This document shows positions 1-37,599 of a stretch of 64,000 nt of DNA, one piece after another. The notes under the pieces were generated by a model, which saw nothing but the letters and a program-made list of their open reading frames with translations, made no database searches and was not told where the DNA came from. This DNA comes from a virus, in IMG/VR virus record IMGVR_UViG_3300045995_000532, positions 1 through 64,000 of that record; one strand, given 5' to 3'. The stretch's first letter is position 1, and each line of letters opens with the position of its first letter. Position numbers and translations under genes: made by a program.

Positions 1-455
1 GCCGTTAGCGACCCCCGCGGCGGCTTGACCAAGTCTTGACTAACGGGGGGGGTGAGCTTGACCATCAAACCAGTTTAGGTCAAGGTTTGGGCAAGCTCGG
101 GTCGTAGGTAGGTTCGTGGCTGTCGCTTGACTCGCGCGTGACCGACACGCGGTCTGCGCTTTACCTTGGCGCTCTGCCGGCGACGACTCGCCGTTTGCCA
201 AACCTTGACCGACACGCGGTCTGACCTTTGGATTGCCGGCGATACTCGCCGATGACCAAACGTTGACGTTTCCTTGTCTCCAGCTCGTCGGGCGCGCCGA
301 TGGTTTGGCGTCGTCCAGGTCGGGCGCGCCGATGTTTGGATGCGAGATCCAAACATCGACGGGTGGACGTCGTGACGGGGGGGGAGTGCGTGACCGACAC
401 CCGTGATCTCGAGCTGACGCGCGCGCGACCTGGAACACCGCGCAGCTCGAGCTGC
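1..455. repeat. Non-coding region dense in short palindromes and duplicated motifs
   Basis: TGACCGACACGCGGTCTG twice (~139, ~206), CGGGCGCGCCGATG twice (~288, ~321), GCCGGCGA..ACTCGCCG twice, inverted pairs CCGTTAG/CTAACGG, CTTGACC/GGTCAAG, TGTTTGGAT/ATCCAAACA, CTCGAGCTG/CAGCTCGAG; no credible ORF. Confidence 0.7.
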
Positions 456-472
456 GTGCTCGGGGCATGGAA

Positions 473-503
473 GGGCCCCCCTAGCAGGTCGCTAGGGGGG
501 CCC
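473..503 (-). terminator. Strong GC hairpin downstream of 520..1812
   Basis: GGGCCCCCCTAGC-AGGTC-GCTAGGGGGGCCC inverted repeat just past the stop codon. Confidence 0.65.
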
Positions 504-519
504 GATTGAGCGGCAGGGC

Positions 520-1812
520 CTACGCGGTCGCGTAGTCCCCCGGGGCCCCCTCGTAGGCCCCTGCGCGCCATGCGAGGAGGAGGGCCTGCCGCTCGGCCGA
601 GATCTCGGCACGGCGGTCGTGCAGGGCCCCCCAGACGGCCGGGACCACGGTGGGCGCGATGTCGGACGGGACCTCATCGGCCAGCGGGCTGGGCTGGCCG
701 TAGTGCAGGACGCTCGGGGACCGCTTGACCGTGGGCCCGACGGGGGACTCCGCCCGGGCCCGCTCGGCGTCCAAGTGCTCGGTCCCGCTCTGGACGTACG
801 ACCCTCCGCCGAATCCCTCGCGCGTGCCCTCGGTCGCCTGGCCCGACTTGGGCCCCCGCCTGCCCTTAGTCCCTCGGTTCGCCTTGGGTGCGGTGCGGGC
901 GGTCGTGCTCCCCGCCGGGCCCGCCGCGCTCTGGACGTTGCCCCCGGAGTCGACCGAGCGGGAGCCGTTGCCCATGATCCCCCGGAGGTCACCCGAGGAG
1001 AGGTTGCCCCGAACCGCCGAGAGCATGGACGAAGCCTCGGCGGGGGTCCCAAGGATGCTCGCCAAGTGCGCGTATCCGTCCGCCCAGACGGACGGCCGTC
1101 CGTAGCCCAGCAGCGCCGGATACCCGCGCGGGTCGTCGGTCCGGCGGGCGAGCCATCGCGGGTCGCCCGCCGTGGCGTGGGCCCACTCGGGGCCCTTGCC
1201 TGCCGCGCCGCTCGGGCCCCGCTCGGTCCCGTCAGCAGTCGTGAGGTTGTCGCCGGTCACGACGAACCCAGAGGCCCCGAGGTCGTCTCTCAGGTCGAGG
1301 TCCGCCTGGGCCCAGACCTTGAGCGCCGCGCGCACCCTGCGCCCTCGGTTCACTCGGTCGTCTCGGTCCGCAAACGGCCGGACCGAGGCCGTGGCGGGGG
1401 TGCAGGAGGCTCCCTGGTAGGTCCGGGTGGACTGGGCCAGGGTGCAGAGGTCGCCGGTCTCCGGGTCCGCCAGCACGACACGAGCCAGGGCCCCCGCCAG
1501 CACGTCCGCCGAGTGCACGGCGGGGAGCAGGGCCCCAGAGGTCTCGGTCGGGCTCGGTTCCGTCCCGTGGCGCCGGGCGTAGCGGATGGCGTCACGGCGG
1601 GCGGACCGCCCGCCGTTGATGACGAGGCCCCGGGCCTCGGTCGACATGCCGGACAGGTCCAGCCCCGAACCGATCAGGTCCATGAGAATCGTCTGCCGCG
1701 CGTCGCGCCAGTCAGCCCCCGGAATCGTGAACGCGCACCGCTGGGCGGTGCGGGTGACGTACGCCATGAGGTCAGCCCCGATGACTCCGGGGGCCTTGGT
1801 TGTTGTGCTCAC
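520..1812 (-). CDS. Hypothetical protein (430 aa); N-terminus weakly resembles sigma70 region 2
   Basis: Long ORF with GC-rich third positions, ending at a hairpin; DWRDARQTILMDL...ARRDAIRYARR pattern is only suggestive. Confidence 0.6.
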   Translation of the reverse strand: MSTTTKAPGVIGADLMAYVTRTAQRCAFTIPGADWRDARQTILMDLIGSGLDLSGMSTEARGLVINGGRSARRDAIRYARRHGTEPSPTETSGALLPAVHSADVLAGALARVVLADPETGDLCTLAQSTRTYQGASCTPATASVRPFADRDDRVNRGRRVRAALKVWAQADLDLRDDLGASGFVVTGDNLTTADGTERGPSGAAGKGPEWAHATAGDPRWLARRTDDPRGYPALLGYGRPSVWADGYAHLASILGTPAEASSMLSAVRGNLSSGDLRGIMGNGSRSVDSGGNVQSAAGPAGSTTARTAPKANRGTKGRRGPKSGQATEGTREGFGGGSYVQSGTEHLDAERARAESPVGPTVKRSPSVLHYGQPSPLADEVPSDIAPTVVPAVWGALHDRRAEISAERQALLLAWRAGAYEGAPGDYATA

Positions 1813-1831
1813 TGTCTTTGTCCTGACTACT

Positions 1832-2200
1832 CGGGGCCCCCCAGCGGGGGGCCTGGCTCAACTATGGCGGATAGTTCGGGCCCCCGCGCGGCTTAGTTGG
1901 GTGAGCCCCGAAAGAGAGAGGGTGAAAGGCCCCCCGAAAGGGAAGAGGCCCCCGAGGCCCCCCGAGGTCCCGAGGCCCCCGAGAGGCCCCCGGATAGTTC
2001 GGGGCCCCCGAGGCTTAGTTAGTTGAGGCCCCCGAGAGGGAAGGCCCCCGAGAGGGAAGGGCCCCGAGGCCGAAAGGGCCCCCGGATAGTTCGGGGCCCC
2101 CGAGGCTTAGTTAGTTGAGGCCCCCGAGAGGGAAGGCCCCCGAGGCCCCCCGAGGCCCCCTCCCCCGAAAGGGGGAAGGGGGAAGGGGGACCGACCGGCC
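1832..2200. repeat. GGCCCCCGA repeat array with three copies of a longer GGATAGTTCGG(G)GCCCCCG..GCTTAGTT unit
   Basis: Longer unit at ~1869, ~1992, ~2084; the last two extend to a near-identical ~60-bp repeat; more than ten GGCCCC(C)CG monomers. Confidence 0.9.
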
Positions 2201-2449
2201 CCCCTTTCCGGGCCGGAACCGTGCGTTCTTGCCCTTCCTGGGGCCCACGGTGCGATTCCGCTCCCTTTCCGGGGCGAAACGCTGCTTTTTGGCCGCTGAC
2301 CTGCGGCTTCACCCTCCAGGCGCCGCCTGGACGGTAATCCTGGCGATGGCCATACCCACGGCCATCATCTTCCTGTCCAGACTCGCCTAATCTTCTAGGC
2401 GAGTGGGGTGCGATTGTTGCACCAACAGCGGGGTCCGATTCCTCGCCTG

Positions 2450-2690
2450 GGTCCTATGCCGACTGAATCATCGGCAGAGGTACGGCCACGCTTTCCGCCG
2501 TAGGTCGTATCGGGTCGAACATGGGCGACCTTAAATACCTAGTGCGGGAAAACGCCAGCAGGCCGTGCGTAGTCTGCCGCCTCTTTCGGATCAATCCGCC
2601 ACCCATTGCGGACCGAGGGCTAGAAGTGGGTTAGGTGAAAGGGGCTACCGAAATTAGCGCCCCCGCTGGCAGGCCGGGTCATGTCTGCCA
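2450..2690 (+). ncRNA. Candidate structured non-coding RNA
   Basis: Nested helices TGCCGA/TCGGCA, AGGTA/TACCT enclosing CGGC/GCCG and GGTCG/CGACC, TCCGC/GCGGA whose loop ACCCATT can pair with downstream AGTGGGT; no good ORF. Confidence 0.4.
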
Positions 2691-2801
2691 CCTTCTTGCG
2701 GTGCCCCGGTGCCACGCCCTGCGATGGGCGGACATTGGCAGGGACCGCGATTTCTTCCGCCACCTTCCGGTGGCGGACCGTGCAATCCGGAGGTGATCGG
2801 C

Positions 2802-3053
2802 ATGGCCATGGTCTTGACCCCCGAGAGCGAGGGCTCCCGGGTGCAGTACCACGGGAGCATCGTGGAGTGCCACGGTGGGGCTGTCGTGGAGTCGGTCTAC
2901 CCGTACTTCGACGGCGGCCTGCGCTGCTCACTGGTGACGGACAACGGCCCGGCCGACGTCCCTGCGCATCAGCGCCGGTTGGACCGCGTGCGCCCGGAGT
3001 CCATCACGGCGGAGCGTGCCCTCCAGCGCTCCGTGTGCGGGATCCCGTTCTAG
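2802..3053 (+). CDS. Small hypothetical protein
   Basis: GGAGGTG SD before ATG; high GC3. Confidence 0.7.
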   Translation: MAMVLTPESEGSRVQYHGSIVECHGGAVVESVYPYFDGGLRCSLVTDNGPADVPAHQRRLDRVRPESITAERALQRSVCGIPF

Positions 3054-3129
3054 TGGGGGTCCTGCACGCCGTGGTGAACCACTGCCTTCCGGTCGTCGCC
3101 CTGGCCTTCGTGGTCTGGTACGGGCGTGC

Positions 3130-3600
3130 GATCTGGACTTCCTGACCTTCGGGTCTTTCGGCGTTCGCGCCACCGCGGGCGGGCTCTTTATGGGCCTTCC
3201 CGTGGACCCTGCCAGTGCTGGGATTACTGCCCTTCTTCATGGCTCCGTGCAACCTGGCGGAGCCATGGGCCCCCGGCGCTGGGTGGAGTTCGGTCCTGAC
3301 ACACCTACGGGCCGGGCTTGCGGGCCAGAGATGGCCGGTTGCAGGTGACTCGCCGCTGATCGGTGCGGAATGTACGCCGATCCTGGGGACCGAACGGGCG
3401 AGCCTGCCCACCCCGTGACGAGAGAGGAATCGGGATACAAAACCTCTCTCACCTCTTCCCTGCCCTTCCTGGGTGGGGCCGTGCGATCCCTTACCGGTGC
3501 GCTAGCCGCACCAGCCTGCGTGGGCTCTTCATGGGTTCACATGGGCACTCTGCCCGCGAAAGCTGGCACCCCCGTCTAGGGGTCGTCGTTGCCTGGTGAA
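3130..3600 (+). ncRNA. Candidate structured non-coding RNA(s)
   Basis: UUCG tetraloop hairpins at 3144-3155 and 3160-3171; stems TGCAACC/GGTTGCA, CTCGCC/GGCGAG, GATCGG/CCGATC, GAGAGAGG/CCTCTCTC; no ORF with phage-like codon use. Confidence 0.4.
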
Positions 3601-3839
3601 CGGTGAATCTGGCCGTCCCCAGGGACAGGCAGGCTGCTGACCGCCCTCCCGCCTCGGGTGGTCACTGTTCGGAGTTCCAACGGCGGGTTAGCGCCCTTTT
3701 CATGGCGCCTCACCGCTGGCAGACCGGCACCGTTGTCTGCCCAAGCCTCACCGCCCGCCCGGCATCCGCTGGGTTCGTGTGCCGCTGGGTGCGACACCGG
3801 GCGGTGAGGCTTGCACCTTCCAGCTCGTGGGAGCCGCGA

Positions 3840-4097
3840 ATGACCAAGGAACAGATCCGCGACTGGCTGCTGAAGTACGCCTGGTCGGGTACGCCAGAGG
3901 CCCAAGCGGAGGAGGTCGCCTGCATCATGGCGCAGGACGACTGGAAGTACATCGACGCCCAAACCGAGAAGTTGGCGGGCCAAGCGTGGGATGACGCCAT
4001 GGCTGCGGAGGCGGAGGGTTACGCCCTCTCTGCCCTGTACGAGTGCCACGGCGGGCCGCACCTTGCGACCTGCCCTGACCAATCCGTTCCCGGCTAG
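3840..4097 (+). CDS. Small hypothetical protein
   Basis: GGGAG SD, MTKEQIRDWLL..., high GC3. Confidence 0.7.
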   Translation: MTKEQIRDWLLKYAWSGTPEAQAEEVACIMAQDDWKYIDAQTEKLAGQAWDDAMAAEAEGYALSALYECHGGPHLATCPDQSVPG

Positions 4098-4235
4098 GAG
4101 GGTCCCAACAATCTCCAGCCTCACCAGTACCGGACGGGCCGCGGCCTGCCGGGAGACAGTGGCACGTTCCTGTCGTTCTGGTGAGGATGGTGCCTGTCGG
4201 GACCGACAGGCTCCCCTGAAAAAGGAGTCCACACC

Positions 4236-5559
4236 ATGAAGAAGTTCTCGAGCGCACGCGACGCCATCGCGGCCGAGAGCCAGCGGCGCGCGTCCAAGGC
4301 CGCCATCCTCCAGTCCCGCAAGGGCTGACATGCGGCTGATGGCCGCCACCCGCCCGTCGTACGTCAAGACGGGCGGAAAATCGGCCTACCTCGCGTACGT
4401 CGGCGGGAAGTACGTCGGCATCGTCGCCAAGCGCGGCGAGAACTGGTACGGCACCAAGGGCGCGCGCCACGTGGCCCAGGGTGCCACCCGCGATGAGGCG
4501 GCCATCGTGTTGGCCGCCTCCGTTGAGCGGCACCGTGATTGACCTGATCTGACAACTACAAGACCCACTGGCCTTCAGGCCGGTGGGTCTTGCGTCTGCC
4601 AGAAGACAGACGGTCCCTCCGTCAAGGAGATGCACCATGCGCTACTCCACCCGCAAGGCCGGCGAGACCGGCAAGGCCCAGACCCTCGCGCGGAAGTTCG
4701 TGCGCCGGGAGAAGTACGGGCCGTTCTTCCTGCGGCAGGAGGTCTAGTGGCCCGCCACACCGAGGAAATCGCCCACGAGAATGGTGGGTCGATCTTCATG
4801 GTCACCGACCACACCACCGGCGTGCTGAGCGACGGCGGCGTTTCCCGCTGGCGTCCCTCCTGGCGGACGTTCTCGGTCACCACCTCCGACGAGCGGGAGG
4901 CGGCCACGGTGATCACCATCCGTGACCGCGGTGACATCGTGTCCGGCCAGTTCACCCTGTCCAGGGATGAGGCCATCGGGTTGATGGCTCACCTGTCGGA
5001 GGTGACTGGGTGAAGGACCTCGAGTACACGGGCCAGGTCGTAGGCGACTACCTTCCCGTCAACGGCATCTGGTCCAAGGTCGTCGCCTTCCGCAAGACCC
5101 TCAAGGGACCGCTCCTCACCGAGCCCGACAAGTACCTCGTTTTCGTCGAACAGTCGGGCGACTTCCGGCTCGGCACGGTCCGCATCAAATCGGAGGTGAC
5201 TGGGTGACCACACGTCCCGCCTACCGCCCGCCGTGGACGTCCGGCGCCTACGCCTACCCCGAGGCGGACACCTTCGCCGCGCTGGGATGACCCGCAGACG
5301 CAACGACGTCCTTTTCCACATGACCAACGATGGGGAAGCTGGCGACCAGAAGTGCGTGTGCTGCGGCGGAATCCTGCGGGAGCCGCCCGCCGGGGAGTCG
5401 TCGATGTTGGGCGCCGTCCCTCCCAAGCCTGATCGCTGGTCCACCTGGGACTACCAGGCCAAGACCAAACAGGTCGGCAACGGCCGCCACTACGTCTGCT
5501 CCTGGGGTGCCCTTCTGACGGCGGTCTTCAAGGCTGCCGATGAGGGGTGGCTCCGCTGA
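4236..5559 (+). CDS. Cluster of very small hypothetical genes (4236-4328, 4330-4542, 4637-4747, 4747-5013, 5010-5207, ~5287-5559)
   Basis: Strong AAGGAG SDs, overlapping stop/start codons, high GC3. Confidence 0.65.
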
Positions 5560-6466: not shown

Positions 6467-7471
6467 ATGTCCTCCCTGGACGTGGATGACGAGGTCGACG
6501 TCGACCTGGAGTGCATCAACCGCGGTGACGACGACGACACCTGCAAGGGTGCCGTCGAGTACCGGACGCCGCTGTCGGGCACGGGGAAGCCCTTCCCGCG
6601 CTGCGACCACCACTGGGACGTCCGCCTCAAGCAGGAGGAGGGCCTCCGCCAGCGGTACCCCGAGCAGCCGCCTTCCGACTGGTCGCCGCTCGACTGCGGC
6701 GAAGTGTGGGACGAGGACGACTACTGATGGGCGAGGACGACTGGCTCGAAGCCGCGTACGAGGACGCCAATGGTGGCGAACCCGACGACGCCCAGGACGA
6801 CAACCTGGACCTCCTCGACCACGAGGAGGACGAGTGACCGGCGATCGCGTGCCGAGCTCACCGCGCCTTCCTGCCCGAGGTCCGCTGATCGTCCCCAAGT
6901 CGTGGACGCGGCTTCCGGAGGAATGGCCGGAGGACGAGTGAACCGTCTCCTCCGGGCCAGCATCCCGCTTCTCTCCGTCCTGCTGTTCATCACGCTGTAT
7001 GGCCTCGCTCTCGGGGCCATCGGCCCGTCCTGAGAGGAGATCCATGACCAACGCCATCGGAAGTACGGTCCACGTCGGGGACACCATGTACCAGGTGATT
7101 GACCGGCGCTCCACCAACGGCTCAGGCCCCAAGTTCTTCGGCAAGTTCGTCTTCACGCTGGTGGACAACGTCGGCCTGACGTACACCACCTACGGCAAGC
7201 GCGTGGTCTGGAACTCGCGCCTGAAGGCGCAGTCGTGACCGCCGCCGAGCGTGCCCTGCTCGCCTTCGTGGACAACAACGCCTGCTCGATCAGGCAAGCG
7301 TTGCTGTCAATGGCCGAGAAGAACGAGCACGACGCCGCCGAGCTGGATGGCCAGGACGACCCCAACTTCCGCAACGTCGCCAGGGTCCTGCGCGAGTCCG
7401 GGCAGGCGTGGCGCACCATGGCCACCAAGTTCGACACCATGGTCAACGACCTCCCGGTCGCCGCCTACTAG
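6467..7471 (+). CDS. Cluster of small hypothetical genes (6467-6727, 7044-7238, 7235-7471 and shorter ones)
   Basis: SD motifs, coupled stop/start codons. Confidence 0.6.
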
Positions 7472-7502
7472 CGGCCGGGCCGCACTTCGAGAGGAGCGTC
7501 CG

Positions 7503-8069
7503 ATGAGCGTCTGGATAACCAGCGACCCCCACTGGGGACACCGGCTCGTCGCAGCCCTGCGAGGCTTCGACAACCCCGACGACCACGACGCCGCCCTTCT
7601 CGCCACCTTCCAGGCCACGGTCAAGCCCGACGATCAGGTCTGGTGGCTGGGTGACCTTGCGATGGGCAACCCGGCGAAGGCGCTCGCTCACACGGCGTCG
7701 ATCCCCGGTCATCACCACCTCATCGTGGGCAACCACGACCGGTGCAGCCCGACGTTCCGTGACTCGCACAAGCACCAGCGTGCCTACTTCGACGTGTTCA
7801 AGTCGGTGCAGGCGTTCGCCCGGCGCCGGATCGGCACGACCAACGTGCTGCTCTCGCACTACCCGTACGTCACCGACGACGGCCAGGCCGACCACGGCGA
7901 GGTCCGGTACGAGCAGTACCGCCTTCCCGACCAGGGCCAGTGGCTGCTCCACGGTCACACGCACAACGCCAACCAGCGTCTCCACGGCAAACAGATCCAC
8001 GTCGGCCTCGATGCCTGGGAGATGAAGCCGGTCAACCTCGACACCATCGCGGCGTTGATGAGCAACTAG
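7503..8069 (+). CDS. Calcineurin-like metallophosphoesterase
   Basis: SDPHWGH, LGD, GNHD, HYP, HGHTH motifs. Confidence 0.9.
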   Translation: MSVWITSDPHWGHRLVAALRGFDNPDDHDAALLATFQATVKPDDQVWWLGDLAMGNPAKALAHTASIPGHHHLIVGNHDRCSPTFRDSHKHQRAYFDVFKSVQAFARRRIGTTNVLLSHYPYVTDDGQADHGEVRYEQYRLPDQGQWLLHGHTHNANQRLHGKQIHVGLDAWEMKPVNLDTIAALMSN

Positions 8070-19167: not shown

Positions 19168-21276
19168 ATGAAGGTCGTCCAGGTCACCCTCGTGAGCGGT
19201 GAGGTTGTCCGCGGGGATACCGCCAAAGTCACCGAGGAGGGGACGTTTGTGATCCGGAGCGGCGGCTCGCACGTCGTCCAGATCGTCGACCCGATCGAGA
19301 CGATCGAGGAGATCGACGTGCCGGACGACGACGCGCGACGAGCAAGGATTGCGGCACGGGAGCGCGCGGCAGAAGAGATGGACGCTGCGGCCGAGCATCA
19401 CTGCCGTCGCTGCCACCGCGGCGTCGAGCACATCCCTGGTGTCGGGTGGGTCGACGTCGTCTCCGGTGACGACGGTGGGACGTACGACATCTGCCCGGAG
19501 GCGGGGAGGTTGAGTAATGGCGAGGAAGACTGGGAGCAGCAGCACGAGGTTGCTCACCCCCGCTGAGTACGCGGCGACGTACCACCTCTGGCAGACGCGC
19601 AAGACCCGTCGGCGTGAGGTTGAAGACCTGCTCGAGCCGTCCATGATTCACGTGTTGGCTGAGCGGGTTCGCCAGGAAGCGGAGCGCAGGTACTGCGACT
19701 CCGAGACAACGATCGACGGTCATCGGAGAGGAGACGGGCATGGATGAGGGTGGCGTGAAGACGATCGACATGGATCGCATCGTGGAGCTCGTCGTCGCAC
19801 ACGGCGTGACCGCGTTCGTTGACCAGACCGGCGGTGGGACGGCCACCATCTACGCAGGGCTGACCCACGCCGATGCCGCCGGTGATCTTCGCTACGCCGC
19901 GTGCGCTGGTCCGGGCGAGTACGGCTGGGGCGCCCGGCCGTCCACCGCCATCGTGGAGGAGTTCTACGTCGGACTGGACGACGACGGAGAGTCCGACGCG
20001 GTCGACGTCAATGACGTCGGTGCCCACGACGAGGCGGCCATCGCGGACCTGATCATCCACCAGGCCATCCGCCTGAGCGACACACCGGTGCCCCTCTCGT
20101 TCGACGAGATCGAGCAGCTCGGGTTCGACGCGACAGGGCGGTCGTCACGGTGATCGCCCCTGAGATCGCTGGACCTCGCGAATGCTGGTGGTGCACCTGC
20201 GGATGCACGGTCATGGTCGGCAGCACGAACATGCGCGGTGTCATCCACGCGGATTTGATCCCGCCCCTCTGCCCGCTCTGCCGAGTCAGCGGCCGCACCG
20301 CGGTCATGCGACCCGGGCGCGTCGCCGTGCAGAGTGTCGTACAGTCGGATACAGTTGTCTCCAACAGCAGTTCATCGAAGAAAGGAACACCACGGTGACC
20401 GACAGCCGGCATGGCCAGACCGACATCCTCGACGTCCCCGCCGAGTATTACGGGGACTTCTACGACGACTACGATCACGACGCAATCAGGGCCGAGCACC
20501 TGGTTCTGATCCAGAAGATGCTCCCCGCCGGCGTCACCCTCCTCGGCAACGGTGAGGTCATCGTCGACCTCAACGTGGTCACCGAGCCGATCTCGATCGA
20601 CTGGCGAGAGATCGGCGAGCTGACGACCGACGAGTTCACCGAGATCGTCAAGCGGCACGACCTCTGGGCCGCCCTCGCCGTCGCCCTGAAGGCGTCGTAC
20701 GCGGAGCAGTTCGACGTCGGCGACGACCGCCCGGTCGCCCGGTTCACCTGCGGATTCCAGGTCATCGACTGGGGCAATGGGGCCTGTGGACCGGTCGAGG
20801 ACCCGGCAGTCGCGACGCTGGACGGCGAGCACACGGTCAGCATCGTTCTCGACGGCCGCGAGTTCGCCCCGGGGGACGTCTGGGATCTGGTCGACGAGGC
20901 GTCCGCCAAGCTCGCGGACTACGGCGTCACGCTCGACTCCAACGGGTGCGGGAGCGACGACCAGCTCCCGACAGAAGTCAGTTCCGGCGAGATTGTTGCC
21001 GGTCAGGCGGCGTCGGTTGCGTACCCCTGGATCGTCGTCGCCGCGACCGTCACCACCGTCCCCGACAACCTGGTTCACGACGAGCTGGGCGGCACCCGCG
21101 GCGTCATCAACCGTGGCACCGCCGAGATCGACGTCGTACGCCTGCCGTACAGCGAGGACAAGGCCGAGTGGGAGCGGCTCGCGGACGCTGCGCTTGCCGA
21201 GTCCGGCTGGGCCCGCACCGGCGCGTGGGTCGAGGACGGCGACTCACTCAGCGCTCAGGTGGAGCAGACCCTGTGA
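19168..21276 (+). CDS. Hypothetical genes (19168-19566, 19517-19747, 19740-20153, 20395-21276)
   Basis: High GC3, coupled junctions. Confidence 0.6.
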
Positions 21277-21707: not shown

Positions 21708-22330
21708 CCACCACTCTGAAAACCGTCCGTGCCGCCCTCACCGACCTCGGAGAGGAGCGCGAGGACATCACCGCCGTCGCCTACGACGACACCGAACAGC
21801 CCGGCTGGTCGGGGAACGAGTCGGAGGCGCGGATCTTCCTGACCCGACGCACGAGGGACACCTGCATCGAGTGCGGTCAACCCCTCCCTGCCGGCCGGCC
21901 CGGACCTGTCACCTGGTTCAGCCAGGGCCAGGGCCAGGGAACCCACAACCACGAGCACGGGTGTGGGGTCTGGAACCTGCCCGAGGAGGTCCAGCTGCTG
22001 GTCGAGCACGACGACCTGTACAAGCTGGACGACCTGCTCGCCGGCCTGGTCGACCGTCTCGACACCAAGGTGACGACGCAGCAGAGGGAGAGCGACGCGA
22101 CCGGCGTTCGCGTCGACCTCATCAAGGAACTGCGCACGTTCCTCCGATCCCACGAGGGTGACGACGAGGAAGACATCCTCCCGACCGGCTCAGACGTCGA
22201 GCCGGGTGTCTACCGCGAGGGCGGGCGGTGGGTCGCGTGGAACTTCGACCCCCGCGACGAGACCGAGACGATCACCGTCACCGAGGACGACCTCCCCCAG
22301 AAGAAGACCATGCAGATCGAACAGGACTGA
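21704..22330 (+). CDS. Hypothetical protein with CxxC...HxCG possible Zn site
   Basis: CIECG, HGCG; high GC3. Confidence 0.65.
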   Translation: MTTTLKTVRAALTDLGEEREDITAVAYDDTEQPGWSGNESEARIFLTRRTRDTCIECGQPLPAGRPGPVTWFSQGQGQGTHNHEHGCGVWNLPEEVQLLVEHDDLYKLDDLLAGLVDRLDTKVTTQQRESDATGVRVDLIKELRTFLRSHEGDDEEDILPTGSDVEPGVYREGGRWVAWNFDPRDETETITVTEDDLPQKKTMQIEQD

Positions 22331-23641: not shown

Positions 23642-24544
23642 ATGGAGCTGATGATCGAACCGATGCTGGCAGTGCCCAGCAGCGGGGCCAGCAACCGCCG
23701 GCCGATCCGGCTGGATGAACTGGCTGCCCGAGGTGATTGGGTGGCCTCCGAGAAGATTGACGGCATACGCGGCATCCTCTACTCGGACGGCCGCGTTTCT
23801 CGTCTCTTCAACCGGAAGGGTCGAGAGATCACGGAGCGGTTCCCTGAGGTCGCACGGTTGCGACTCCCGGAGGTGGTCCTCGATGGTGAGATCGTCGCGA
23901 AAGATCGCATGTTCCAGACCGTGGCGACCCGGGACAAGCAGACGACAGGGTTCGAGCACGCAGCACGAGCGAACCCTTGCATGCTCATCGCGTTCGACAT
24001 CCTGTCCAAGGGCGGCCAGTTGCTGACGAGTCTCCCACTGCACCAGCGCACCCAGCTGATGCGTGAGGTTGTTGGCCGGCGTCGCAACCTTCGACCCGTC
24101 AAGCAGTCGACGGACCTCATGAGGCTCTGGCGTCAGATCGCGGCCGCGGGCGGTGAGGGCGTGATCGCGAAGCAGCGGTCGTCCCTCTACCTCCCCGGTG
24201 AGCGCTCCGGGTCGTGGGTCAAGTTCAAGACCCTCCAGCGCATCACTGCGATCGCCGGCAGTTACAACGTCGGCGAGAACCGAGAGTTCGGCGCGATGAA
24301 CCTGTCCTTGCTCGACGGCATCAAGGAGGTAAAGATCGGCCGGGTTGGCACCGGCTGGACTGTGGCCCAGCAGAAGGACCTGAAGGCCCGGATGGATGCC
24401 GGCGAGATCCTACTGGTGGAGATCGAGGCCCTCAACCGGACCCCCGACAATGCACTACGGTTCCCTGTATTCCTGCACGAAAGGACTGATCTCGACTTTT
24501 CGGCGGCCACCGCCGACCAACTCAAGTTACTTCCCGTCTACTGA
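23642..24544 (+). CDS. ATP-dependent DNA ligase
   Basis: PMLA, EKIDGIR (KxDG), LDGEI, AFDIL, EGVIAK, WVKFK, VGTG, LRFP. Confidence 0.93.
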   Translation: MELMIEPMLAVPSSGASNRRPIRLDELAARGDWVASEKIDGIRGILYSDGRVSRLFNRKGREITERFPEVARLRLPEVVLDGEIVAKDRMFQTVATRDKQTTGFEHAARANPCMLIAFDILSKGGQLLTSLPLHQRTQLMREVVGRRRNLRPVKQSTDLMRLWRQIAAAGGEGVIAKQRSSLYLPGERSGSWVKFKTLQRITAIAGSYNVGENREFGAMNLSLLDGIKEVKIGRVGTGWTVAQQKDLKARMDAGEILLVEIEALNRTPDNALRFPVFLHERTDLDFSAATADQLKLLPVY

Positions 24545-25267
24545 TCAGGAGGAAGAAGCAATGGCACAATACGTCGCAATCGCTGGACGGTGGCCGGAGG
24601 GTCCACTTGACATGCTCGCCGGTGGACCGGACCGAGCCACCACGCGCCAGATGGCGCTCAACCTGCTCGACAAGTTCCCGTTGCCCGACGAGGGGGAACT
24701 CAGGCTTCTCCAGGTGCTCGAGACGCCGGCCGAGGTGTGGCACGCGGACGTCACCTACAACCGCAACGAAGCCGCGCACCCGACGTCGTCGTGCAGCGAC
24801 TGTGGGCACGCGAGTGACTGCGCAACCCACAACGACCCAGCGATGCCCTCGGGCGCCTGCACCTGCAAGGCGAGTGAGGGCATGTAGCGGATATACCCCC
24901 GGACCTGTGTCTTTAGTAGGTGTGTCCATCAGGAGGAAGGAGCACGGACATGAGTGATGAGGTCAGGCAGGCGCTGGCCCAGGAGCGGCACGACGCTGAG
25001 CTGGAAGCGGCCGACGACGTCAGTGGGGAGACCTTCGATCCGTCGGAGGACAACGTCTTCGACGAGGACGCCCAGTACGAGCGGCAGCGGGAGGTGAGGA
25101 AGTGGGGGCAGTGAAGAGGTCGACGATGCCCTCGTCATCCACCTGGTCGACCCCACGTCGGACGGACCAGCGCAGTCGGACATCTTCTGGGACCTGTGGG
25201 ACCTGCCTGACACGATCCCCGGTGTTCGGATCTACCACCACAACCACCTCTTGACGAGGAGCGCGAC

Positions 25268-25768
25268 ATGAAGCCGTCCGCCTACGAAGCCGTCCAGGAC
25301 GTGCTGGACGCCTCCTCGATGCTCACCCTGGCACTATCCAACGTCACCCCCGGCACGCGTCTCACAGCGCTGGCGGAGCTGCTTGACGGGGTGCAGCAGA
25401 AACTGTCCCGGGTCAACGCGCTCCTCACGATGTATCCGGACCTCACGCTCGAGTTCACCCCCGGTGAGCAGTTCACCGCCGGTGAGTCCAGCGAGATCGC
25501 AGCCTTGGCGGAGGCTGCGATGTTCTCCATCCCTGACCGGCTCGACGGTCTCCTGGTGGCCAACGCCAAGGACGGCCGAGTGATCAGCAGCGAGATCGCG
25601 GCCGCCCTTCACGAGCGTCCGGTCACCTTCGTCTGGGACGCCGCGGCTCGGCGAGGAACGGTCGACATCCGACCGCTCCTGTACTCACTTCTCGACCAGA
25701 TCGACCCGCACGGTGAAGACGCCCCAGGTTTCTGGGGGGACAACGACGACGACAAAGAGGAGGACTAA
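25268..25768 (+). CDS. Hypothetical protein coupled to RuvB-like gene
   Basis: GAGGAG SD; stop abuts next ATG. Confidence 0.7.
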   Translation: MKPSAYEAVQDVLDASSMLTLALSNVTPGTRLTALAELLDGVQQKLSRVNALLTMYPDLTLEFTPGEQFTAGESSEIAALAEAAMFSIPDRLDGLLVANAKDGRVISSEIAAALHERPVTFVWDAAARRGTVDIRPLLYSLLDQIDPHGEDAPGFWGDNDDDKEED

Positions 25769-35609: not shown

Positions 35610-37469
35610 TCACGCCGCAGCCAGTGCCCAGGCCATCCCGGCGGGGGAGGCGTCGTCAGGCGGCCACCAGTAGTCCTCGTCAGGCGGGGAGGACTCCGGC
35701 TCGTGCCGGGCCAACCACGTGCGCCACGCCCGGCGGTCAGCTGCGTACGCACGCAACTGGATGTCGATCTCGTCGAGCACGCCCAGCAGCTCTGCGGCCG
35801 CGGCGAGCCGGCCGGGCCGGGCCACCAGCCCGGCGGAGGACCGGTCGACGAGGCCGTAGGCGGCCATCGTGTCGATCGCGGCCGCCACGGCGGTCCGCGA
35901 GATGCCCGTGGCCGGCACGAGCGTGGTGATCGTCTTCGCCCGGCCCGCCTCGAGCGCCTCGAACACCAGCGCCGCCACGTGTCCCATTACTCGGAACACC
36001 GGCCGCAGCGCGTAGGCCTTGCCCCGGTCCCACCGCAGATCAGGCAGCATCTCCTGCGCGCTGGGCGGGATCCTCAGCTCGTACAGGTCCGCGCGCTCAC
36101 CCCGGCCCGGCTCGACCAGATCCACCCAGCCATCAGGATCAGCGGCCAGCTTGCGCAGTTCACGCAGCACGGCCGCCACCGTGGAGTAGTGGGCGCCGAC
36201 GGCGACCGCGATGTTCCTGACACCGAACTCCACCCGGCGAGAACCCGTCTTGCTGGCAGCCTCACCGAGCGCCCTCAGCACGAACCGGGGGAGGTGGCCT
36301 CGTCTCCCGGAGAAGCGATGCTGCTCGACAGTACGGAGTGCGGTTCGCCAGGTTCGGATGTACTCATGCTCAGCCTGCGTCCCACCCCACCGGTGTGACT
36401 TAGATTCGCTTGTGTGGGATTTGCGATCATGGGTATCCCCGCTGCTCAGGGCGGCTTTCTCTCGATGTGAGGCGATGAACGCCTGTGCTCGACGCCAGTC
36501 GCGCTCCAGGGAGGCGCTCCGCTGGTGGGTGCCGTATCGGGCGTACATGCCCGCCAGACCCGGCCAGCGCCCGTCGGCCAGGCGTACGCCGACATCGGAC
36601 AGGGACCACCCAGCCCGCGCAGCGCCAGCAATGACGGCTTGGCGAGCTTCGGAGGCCGACGGGTAGCGGGCGTGGTCGTAGACACCGGACTCCGCGATCA
36701 CCCGCACCCGGGAACCGAGCTGGCGTCTAAGGCCGGACGGGGTCTCCGGCTCAAGGTCGACCGGTACTAGCCGTTCGCGCCATGCCGCGATCTCTGTAGA
36801 CAGGCCCTCGCGGATCTTGTCGAGCACGGCCATGCCGTTCCGCCTGTGCACCATGTCGTAAGCCAGGGCCGAGGACATGGTCAGCTCCTGGAACCCACCC
36901 GACTTGTGCTTCGCCCCAGGAGGCCTGATGCAACCCGTCTTCAATGACCGGTGCGGCCCGGCGTCGAGTGTCGGGTAGATGGCGGCGAGAGCTTCAACGA
37001 TCTCTCGCGCCTGCTCGTAGGGCATCCGGTCGGCGAGAGGCAGGTAGATATGCCGACCGCCGGTGGGGGAGATGTCTGTGATGACTCGTGCACCCATGCT
37101 GGTCAGCCACGTGACCAGGCGCTTCTCGTCGGCGTCCACTGCGTCCCGGCCGGCACGATCTGCATCAACGGGTACACCGCCCGAGTACGTCATGCGGCGG
37201 TTGCTGCCGACGTCCAGGTCGAAGAACAGGGTCCGGCAGCAGCCGTCGTTGCCGTACGTCCTGATGGCCGCAGGCTGGGAGGGGAGCCGGTCCGTCAAGG
37301 GCCGTTCATCTCTGGACCGGTACTCAATTTCGCCCCGTGAGCACTTGACGCCGATCCGCACACGTGGTTGGCCAGCGAGGTGCGGAGCGAACGCTGGCCA
37401 GGCCTCCCGAGGCGTCAGGGCGTCGAGATGTCCAGAATCACCCGGCGTGTCGTAGGCAGGGTGTTGCAT
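35610..37469 (-). CDS. Putative plasmid replication initiator (primase-polymerase-like N-domain, HTH C-domains)
   Basis: FFDLD, SPTGGRHIY, GCIRPPG motifs; C-terminal HTH-like segments; adjacent to parA. Confidence 0.7.
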   Translation of the reverse strand: MQHPAYDTPGDSGHLDALTPREAWPAFAPHLAGQPRVRIGVKCSRGEIEYRSRDERPLTDRLPSQPAAIRTYGNDGCCRTLFFDLDVGSNRRMTYSGGVPVDADRAGRDAVDADEKRLVTWLTSMGARVITDISPTGGRHIYLPLADRMPYEQAREIVEALAAIYPTLDAGPHRSLKTGCIRPPGAKHKSGGFQELTMSSALAYDMVHRRNGMAVLDKIREGLSTEIAAWRERLVPVDLEPETPSGLRRQLGSRVRVIAESGVYDHARYPSASEARQAVIAGAARAGWSLSDVGVRLADGRWPGLAGMYARYGTHQRSASLERDWRRAQAFIASHREKAALSSGDTHDRKSHTSESKSHRWGGTQAEHEYIRTWRTALRTVEQHRFSGRRGHLPRFVLRALGEAASKTGSRRVEFGVRNIAVAVGAHYSTVAAVLRELRKLAADPDGWVDLVEPGRGERADLYELRIPPSAQEMLPDLRWDRGKAYALRPVFRVMGHVAALVFEALEAGRAKTITTLVPATGISRTAVAAAIDTMAAYGLVDRSSAGLVARPGRLAAAAELLGVLDEIDIQLRAYAADRRAWRTWLARHEPESSPPDEDYWWPPDDASPAGMAWALAAA

Positions 37470-37599
37470 CTGAAGCTCGGTGACGGTTATGTTGAGTCCG
37501 ATCGATAAGGGAGCACACCGAAGGGTGTGTCTGATCGAGGCTCTTCACTCAGTCCGCGCCGGCAAGCTCAGGAGAGGGAAGAACCTCAAACACTTGGAT

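Follow-up and report, generated by a model that had tools for sequence, protein, structure and literature searches.

The first 64 kb (64,000 nucleotides, hereafter the window) of the 102,678-bp IMG/VR virus record IMGVR_UViG_3300045995_000532 carries, at the head of its rightward, early gene arm, an array of nine short units in which a TTC lies upstream of a conserved GTGCR box, usually at a fixed distance and often in the loop of a small hairpin. All nine lie on the plus strand, within 1.6 kb of mostly non-coding DNA. It is quite possible, and we tentatively favor the view, that these units are cassettes combining a promoter of the extracytoplasmic function (ECF) type with a stem-loop, read by a phage sigma-like factor. 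The S-GTGCRAY box would then be an ECF-sigma-type -10 element, its T, G and A falling at -12, -11 and -8, and the start of transcription would lie about 7 nucleotides (nt) past the Y of the box. The reader would most likely be the phage's own divergent sigma-like protein (520-1812, minus strand) acting on the host core RNA polymerase; alternatively, a host ECF sigma factor may read the boxes. The TTC, at -28 to -26, could serve as a non-canonical upstream contact. The hairpin around it would work in RNA, on transcripts arriving from earlier cassettes and from a second set of promoter-like repeats just upstream (class A units, described below), and may attenuate or insulate such incoming transcripts, like the stem-loops of the PeSL (promoter-early stem-loop) cassettes of T4-type phages.

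Clustering and strand bias of the motif

The initial annotation had reported six copies of TTC-N12-GTGCR and one copy with an 11-nt spacer, all on a single strand within 1.6 kb, and each copy is where it had been placed: the six have their TTC at 2206, 2235, 2393, 2765, 3466 and 3774, and the N11 copy has its TTC at 3233. We recognize two further copies, one degenerate (TTC 2267, GCTGC 2281) and one with a 16-nt spacer (TTC 3107, box 3126). With these looser copies included, the nine boxes begin at 2221, 2250, 2281, 2408, 2780, 3126, 3247, 3481 and 3789.

The motif is enriched both over shuffled sequence and over the rest of the genome. The whole window holds 12 copies of TTC-N12-GTGCR against 5.0 +/- 2.2 after shuffling, and at least 12 were reached in 0 of 100 shuffles. 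The sharper form, TTC-N12-GTGCRAY, is found only in the array: counting both strands of the 102,678-bp record it occurs five times, always within 2235-3795 on the plus strand. Across ten related phage records (~876 kb) there are seven copies, scattered and never clustered, a rate at which ~0.013 copies would be expected per 1.6 kb. The exact long form of the motif found no match in IMG/VR. GTGCG by itself occurs 12 times on the plus strand of 1813-3839, where 2.9 are expected, and once on the minus strand. This genome has four hairpins of at least 7 bp that loop a TTC and end 1-6 nt before a GTGCR, each of them within the array; three relatives together have one, among ~1,550 GTGCR sites.

The array sits exactly at the start of the plus-strand arm, facing a minus-strand gene; plus-strand genes run from 2.8 to ~29 kb, and nearly all of the remainder is on the minus strand. 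Third-position GC content bears out the annotation's description of the region as mostly non-coding, since it marks only 2802-3053 and 3840-4097 as coding. These are the first two early genes, both orphans on the plus strand, encoding 83 and 85 amino acids. Unit 5 lies upstream of the first, which is followed by a 14-bp hairpin (3033-3069), and unit 9 lies upstream of the second. A promoter function is favored by the extreme clustering and strand bias, by the restriction of the array to this genome, and by its position: it fills the non-coding gap at the start of the plus-strand arm, with units 5 and 9 preceding start codons.

Architecture of the nine units

The four hairpins that the initial annotation had quoted all fold as it drew them. 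They belong to unit 1 (2195-2227; hairpin 2195-2216, 7 bp, loop CCCTTTCC), unit 4 (2381-2414; hairpin 2381-2404, 9 bp, loop ATCTTC), unit 5 (2756-2786; hairpin 2756-2777, 9 bp, loop TTCC) and unit 8 (3458-3487; hairpin 3458-3478, 8 bp, loop TTCCT). In unit 1 the TTC occupies 2206-2208 and is followed by the box CGTGCGTT, with its GTGCG at 2221. The boxes of units 4 and 8 read GTGCGAT (2408-2414 and 3481-3487) and that of unit 5 reads GTGCAAT (2780-2786), 22 nt before the ATG of the first early gene. The box of unit 4 doubles as the 5' arm of a small hairpin at 2407-2423. The stem of unit 8 contains two G-T pairs, and hence is stable on the plus strand only; it is absent from the list of minus-strand hairpins.

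Three further units have weaker hairpins. Unit 2 (2231-2256) pairs over 5 bp, one of them G-T, at 2231-2244, with TTC at 2235-2237 and the box GTGCGAT at 2250-2256, 29 nt past the box of unit 1. Unit 3 (2259-2287; hairpin 2259-2276, TTC 2267-2269, box GCTGC at 2281) is a degenerate paralogue of unit 1 with 78% identity, in which the T and G of the box (2283-2284) are still in register. Unit 6 (3103-3132) is the copy with the 16-nt spacer and is thus off register; its TTC at 3107 lies in a hairpin (~3103-3115) of 4 bp, one of them G-T, with loop TTCGT, and its box is GTGCGAT (3126-3132). The last two units retain both blocks with the TTC outside any hairpin loop. Unit 7 (3233-3253) has the 11-nt spacer, with TTC at 3233 and the box GTGCAAC at 3247, which sits within the loop of a 13-bp hairpin (3236-3269). 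In unit 9 (3774-3795) the TTC at 3774 is followed by GTGCGAC at 3789-3795, a box that shares the reading frame of the ATG at 3840 and precedes it by 51 nt. Units 1 to 3 are spaced 29 nt apart; between the others lie 120-370 nt of non-coding sequence or a small gene.

The annotation's statement that the TTC is usually looped by a hairpin thus applies to five or six of the nine units, in which 5-9 bp stems with differing arm sequences enclose it, and does not extend to the copies at 3233 and 3774. The hairpins span the interval from TTC to box in six units. Stems range from 5 to 9 bp, loops from 4 to 8 nt and stem-to-box gaps from 2 to 5 nt, and because the distance from TTC to box is fixed nonetheless, we take the conserved measure to lie in the primary sequence, with the hairpin built around the TTC. 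Five G-T pairs occur across four of the stems (units 2, 3, 6 and 8), which make these hairpins stable on the plus strand only and fit an RNA-level role in rightward transcripts. No unit hairpin appears in a scan for intrinsic terminators; the unit tails read S-S-GTGCG and have no T-run.

Other structures lie among and beyond the units. A second family of small hairpins, with loops CTCTTYATGG, occurs at 3181-3197, 3229-3246, 3520-3540 and 3691-3708, and the segments 3166-3213 and 3507-3554, downstream of units 6 and 8, are 67% alike. Between two early genes lies a very strong 15-bp hairpin (4559-4592, about -29.5 kcal/mol, loop TTCA), followed by TTGCGTC in a loose echo of the unit layout. A 46-codon open reading frame (ORF; 2250-2390) uses the GTG of unit 2 as its start and stops within the hairpin loop of unit 4; it has a hydrophobic C-terminal half and a weak coding-like third-position GC signal. 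We considered leaderless ORFs starting at the GTG of the boxes (31-57 amino acids) and rejected them as a general explanation: only 2250-2390 is coding-like by third-position GC, and the GTG of unit 5 is out of frame with its gene.

Resemblance of the box to an ECF-type -10 element

In M. tuberculosis, the -10 element measured for sigma L has the consensus T-G-N-C/A-A-G, a CG being preferred immediately upstream and specificity being strongest at the G (PMC6372665). Taken with its flanking base, the unit box reads S-G-T-G-C-R-A-Y and resembles this element, a likeness judged by eye and not by a scored model. The T and the G are present in all nine units, the A at -8 in seven of nine and a C at -14 in five of nine. 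The sole conserved block upstream is the TTC, 11 nt before the S of the box. No housekeeping sigma-70/SigA promoter (TTGACA-N16-18-TANNNT) was found in 1800-4700. Promoter function is favored because two conserved blocks at fixed spacing over variable sequence are the format of a sigma-dependent promoter, and because the box resembles the sigma L -10 element in a region where no sigma-70-type promoter was found.

A sigma-like candidate next to the array

The orphan gene at 520-1812 on the minus strand is transcribed away from the array and encodes 430 amino acids, of which the N-terminal 185 residues model as a sigma-factor-like domain. The presence of such a domain in the adjoining orphan protein is a further reason why a sigma factor is favored as the reader. 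Among 1.8 billion representative proteins there are only four homologues, one of them in the related phage record G004 and none in the relatives G001 and G003; searches with the 430-residue protein against phages, IMG/VR and a set of 5.8 billion proteins returned the gene itself alone. Homology within the family spans residues 1-190, and the GTG start at 1812 is favored because D14 and Y18 are conserved. Scans of metagenomes and IMG/VR for the DNA of the homologues P0123, P0125 and P0126 gave no match, and sequence variation within the family alignment is too great to support a pattern scan.

The AlphaFold model of residues 1-200 has confident helices, with predicted local distance difference test (pLDDT) scores of 81-91 over most of 10-80, 100-120 and 150-180, and suggests a sigma-2 domain plus a possible sigma-4 domain. 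Against 48,161 representative chains, VIA-align placed the Streptomyces coelicolor sigma factor ShbA first (Z 6.9-7.2 over 78-79 residues, root-mean-square deviation 4.2), a Z of ~7 being below the caution level of the tool and in a range common for helical models. Sigma factors made up about 21 of the best 50 matches, among them SigL, SigH, SigJ, SigK, SigC, SigR, SigW, BldN, CnrH, sigma 28, SigB and domain 2 of sigma A. Whole ECF sigmas aligned over model residues 1-178, for example SigL over 154 residues and BldN over 121. Foldseek ranked SigE-N and sigma 28 first, with E only ~1. Aligned by hhalign with 8-12 Nocardioides sigmas, the family was colinear with regions 2 and 4, its G-x-D-x-x-D-x-x-Q-D-I stretch falling on region 2.1-2.2 and its later helices on region 4, a weak result at P 0.004-0.03 and a probability of 2-8%. 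The 520-1812 protein is somewhat more likely than not to be sigma-like, given a family alignment of little depth and structural scores in the middle range.

The initial annotation had named promoters for a phage sigma-like factor as one of its options. The likeness of the box to an ECF -10 element and the sigma-like model of the neighboring protein lend that option real, if indirect, support. A genome-wide search with the Sigma70_r2 profile (PF04542) was negative, and one with Sigma70_r4_2 gave just two weak helix-turn-helix (HTH) matches, far off.

Upstream of the array, the left end of the window (1-520) is a non-coding block with many CTTGAC words, and a stretch of it (ACTAAC, a G run, TGAGCT) is shared with G004. 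The counterpart block in G004 (~21900-22150, minus strand) lies upstream of the sigma-like gene and in the same orientation; the sigma-like gene here is inverted relative to that arrangement.

Class A units and related phages

Immediately upstream of the array stand three tandem class A units (1868-2123, plus strand; period ~92-122 bp), each made of GGATAGTTCGG, ~10 nt, then GCTTAGTTRGKTGAGS, and pointing toward the early arm. We compared three whole related records (G001, G003 and G004) by synteny. In these relatives the unit of this kind has a box YTAG, 3-6 nt and TGAGR, preceded by a GGAAA/GAAAC-type element that is often in a short hairpin. In all four phages it is limited to the head of the early arm and points in the early direction: G004 has four tandem copies directly after an intrinsic terminator (19865-20190, minus strand), G003 six (78370-80763, minus strand), and G001 two matching copies plus two looser ones recognized by eye (~36765-37530). 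The unit does not match the housekeeping promoter consensus, and its box is absent from five more distant relatives.

The array itself is absent from G001, G003 and G004, which also have no DNA similarity to 1-4300. On this comparison the promoter-like unit is common to the family, and the array is an addition of this genome alone, placed downstream of it; transcripts from the class A units may run on through the array.

Evidence against promoter function

Several observations weigh against promoters read by the neighboring sigma-like protein. In the box, -9 is mostly G and -7 is Y instead of the G of sigma L. No GGAAC-like -35 element is conserved 16-17 bp upstream of the box, and the TTC at -28 to -26 is 5-6 bp nearer to it than a canonical -35. 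The 29-nt spacing of units 1 to 3 is tight for RNA polymerase, and at unit 5 a start ~7 nt past the box would remove a good Shine-Dalgarno sequence (2789-2793). On the protein side, to the middling structural Z and the weak profile alignment given above are added a model built on five sequences only, the lack of a Pfam match at E <=10 for six rows of the family alignment (five distinct proteins), and a PDB profile search with the 520-1812 protein that returned no sigma factor. G004 has a sigma-like homologue yet no such array, and a private motif for that homologue was not found. The region upstream of 520-1812 is without a copy of the motif, unlike most self-regulated ECF sigmas.

Alternative explanations

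Less probable than the promoter cassettes, and in our judgment rather unlikely, is that the units act as cis elements at the RNA level. Under this explanation 2.1-3.8 kb would be transcribed whole from the class A units, and the hairpin with its GUGCGAY tail would be a site of binding, processing or antitermination for a phage or host RNA-binding protein or nuclease, with the long leader cut or scaffolded into small RNAs and monocistronic mRNAs. RNA processing or protein binding, which the initial annotation had also raised, becomes more plausible because conserved, promoter-like class A units lie upstream; they are kept in four related phages, stand immediately before the array and point into it. 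The plus-strand-specific G-T pairs fit such a role, as do arms that vary with pairing kept and the folding of 2125-2425, which on the plus strand is far more stable than that of shuffles (z = -5.3). The units border two small genes and non-coding segments of 100-370 nt, as RNase III sites do in the early region of T7. The Shine-Dalgarno sequence after unit 5, moreover, is intact only if the mRNA starts upstream of that unit.

Other features speak against an RNA-level site. The spacing that is conserved runs from the TTC in primary sequence, the stem ending anywhere from 2 to 5 nt before the box; units 7 and 9 retain both blocks but no hairpin around the TTC; cutting at tandem sites spaced by 29 nt would yield fragments of no use; and stems of 5-9 bp are too short for RNase III. 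The minus strand of 2125-2425 is as structured as the plus strand (z = -6.1). For 2408-2780 taken as a structured non-coding RNA, a z of only -2.1 (-2.2 on the other strand) speaks neither for nor against. No Rfam covariance model reached its gathering score in the window, and 1800-4300 gave only chance-level matches at E <=5. An RNA-level site would also leave the likeness to an ECF -10 element unexplained.

It is improbable that the units are instead operator-type DNA sites, in which GTGCGAY, with the TTC, would be bound by a phage or host regulator of early transcription in the manner of stoperators or repressor sites. Many copies in the same orientation, confined to a control region, would suit such sites, as would GGTGCG-like words inside the class A units of G001 and G003 and the presence in this phage group of a gene for a putative Cro/CI-type double-HTH protein. 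The sites are asymmetric, however, and the inverted repeats around them, which differ in sequence from unit to unit, cannot serve as one shared dimer site. Relatives that retain the HTH gene lack the exact motif, and in this genome an IS21 element appears to split that gene.

Slim, too, is the chance that a sigma-like factor on the host polymerase recognizes a structured promoter, in which a hairpin, either extruded or RNA/DNA, would display the TTC in its loop, always equally far from the ECF-type -10 box. Recognition would then be by shape plus sequence, a sigma-based counterpart of the N4 hairpin promoter, and the sigma factor would be divergent enough for profile searches to miss it.

We consider it very unlikely that the array has a structural role in DNA apart from transcription, whether as an origin of replication, as a site for packaging or, like the repeat-rich non-coding block of T5, as an injection-stop region. 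The array is a large non-coding block rich in repeats and palindromes near one end of the contig, and the cumulative GC skew peaks near 3-4 kb. We rejected an origin or terminus read from this peak, the skew being weak and asymmetric; a strand-specific orientation and G-T pairs are unexpected for structural sites, and the contig stops inside a lysin gene where the assembly broke, not at a true genome terminus.

Most implausible are the N4-like, structure-specific promoters that the initial annotation had proposed by analogy, in which a phage single-subunit RNA polymerase would read an extruded DNA hairpin and start ~12 nt from its loop: the geometry is similar (loop centers 13-16 nt and stem ends 2-5 nt before the box) and the stems vary with loop base content kept, but the G-T pairs place the stable hairpin on the non-template (plus) strand where N4 uses a template-strand hairpin. 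No ORF has the size of the N4 virion polymerase; the largest encode a tape measure, a terminase-like protein with an intein, and tail proteins whose conservation extends to relatives. Pfam RNA_pol (PF00940), the one RNA-polymerase family searched, gave no match, a negative that is uninformative since control genomes were also unmatched.

Genome context

The virus record has 64% GC (67% in the array region) and carries genes for tail, portal, primase-helicase, DnaN, Ku-like and IS21 proteins. We read the host as an uncultured actinobacterium because the IS21 transposase matches copies in Actinomycetota genomes, at up to 77% identity. The portal protein has many metagenomic homologues at 40-59% identity, and a DNA similarity search with 1800-5000 against known phages found no match. 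Scans for tRNA and tmRNA genes gave none. The record is not a closed genome, because its right end cuts a CHAP-type lysin gene with peptidoglycan-binding repeats, read from its translation (genome 102103-102678, minus strand), and end repeats are absent; the CheckV completeness of 100% is an overestimate, given that the contig breaks off within that gene.

The IS21 element (IstA plus IstB, genome 91900-94187) appears to split a gene whose flanks lie at 91502-91780 and 94309-94686. Intact homologues in G003 (6862-7680) and G001 (24453-25313) encode 272-286 amino acids; that of G003 has weak, sub-threshold matches to Cro/CI-type and ParB-like HTH domains, and that of G001 has none. The split gene may be a phage repressor that has been inactivated in this genome. 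Elsewhere, genome 82791-86702 (minus strand) encodes a 1303-residue protein with LAGLIDADG and homing-endonuclease domains.

Comparison with known systems

If our tentative interpretation is right, the phage, a member of a group known from metagenomes only, would carry within 4 kb a compact pair: a cryptic sigma-like protein and the nine promoter cassettes cognate to it. Actinobacterial phages would then carry sigma factors invisible to current profiles, and the pair might offer an orthogonal sigma/promoter system for the engineering of actinomycetes. The fixed spacing of TTC and box inside a variable hairpin lies outside standard sigma geometry.

The phage sigma factors T4 gp55, SPO1 gp28 and phiEco32 gp36 serve middle or late genes spread over the genome. 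With such systems the arrangement proposed here would share a divergent phage sigma that redirects the host core polymerase to a phage-only motif; their targets are genome-wide, whereas the motif here stays within 1.6 kb where the early arm begins. The hairpin promoter system of the N4 virion RNA polymerase (listed in PMC4496689) is alike in its short hairpin, variable stem, conserved loop content and fixed distance to a conserved downstream sequence, and in clustering at the genome end that holds the early genes. It differs in its 3-nt loops, as against loops of 4-8 nt here on a hairpin favored on the non-template strand.

Promoters of group 4 (ECF) sigma factors such as sigma L (PMC6372665) likewise present a bipartite motif at fixed spacing, with a -10-like box of CG/GG then T-G-N-R-A in which T and G are invariant, and in ECF systems, as here with the candidate, the sigma gene is divergent from and adjoins its targets. 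Their upstream element is GGAAC at about -33, where the units have TTC at about -27. The candidate sigma here differs from ECF sigmas in being unrecognized by Pfam, in its 240-residue low-complexity tail and in having no anti-sigma partner; ECF sigmas are mostly self-regulated, and the candidate gene has no copy of the motif upstream of itself.

The PeSL stem-loops of T4-type phages lie between or over promoter boxes and act as terminators or attenuators; reporter tests show them to terminate transcription, and their drawn structures include G-T pairs (PMC2839356). In RB49 and phi1, promoter and terminator activity of these cassettes has been measured, and the units here are known from sequence alone. 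The PeSL cassettes differ further in strong sigma-70 consensus boxes, an AT-rich upstream tract and GGGG/CCCC stems; the boxes here are not of the sigma-70 type, the host is a high-GC actinobacterium and the flanked segments are mostly non-coding. The two nevertheless have in common short cassettes repeated in the early region, a promoter or promoter-like motif with a stem-loop between or over its boxes, stems that include G-T pairs, and a placement on either side of orphan ORFs. Should the units prove to be promoters, the idea of a promoter-plus-stem-loop cassette would extend from T4-type phages to those of high-GC hosts.

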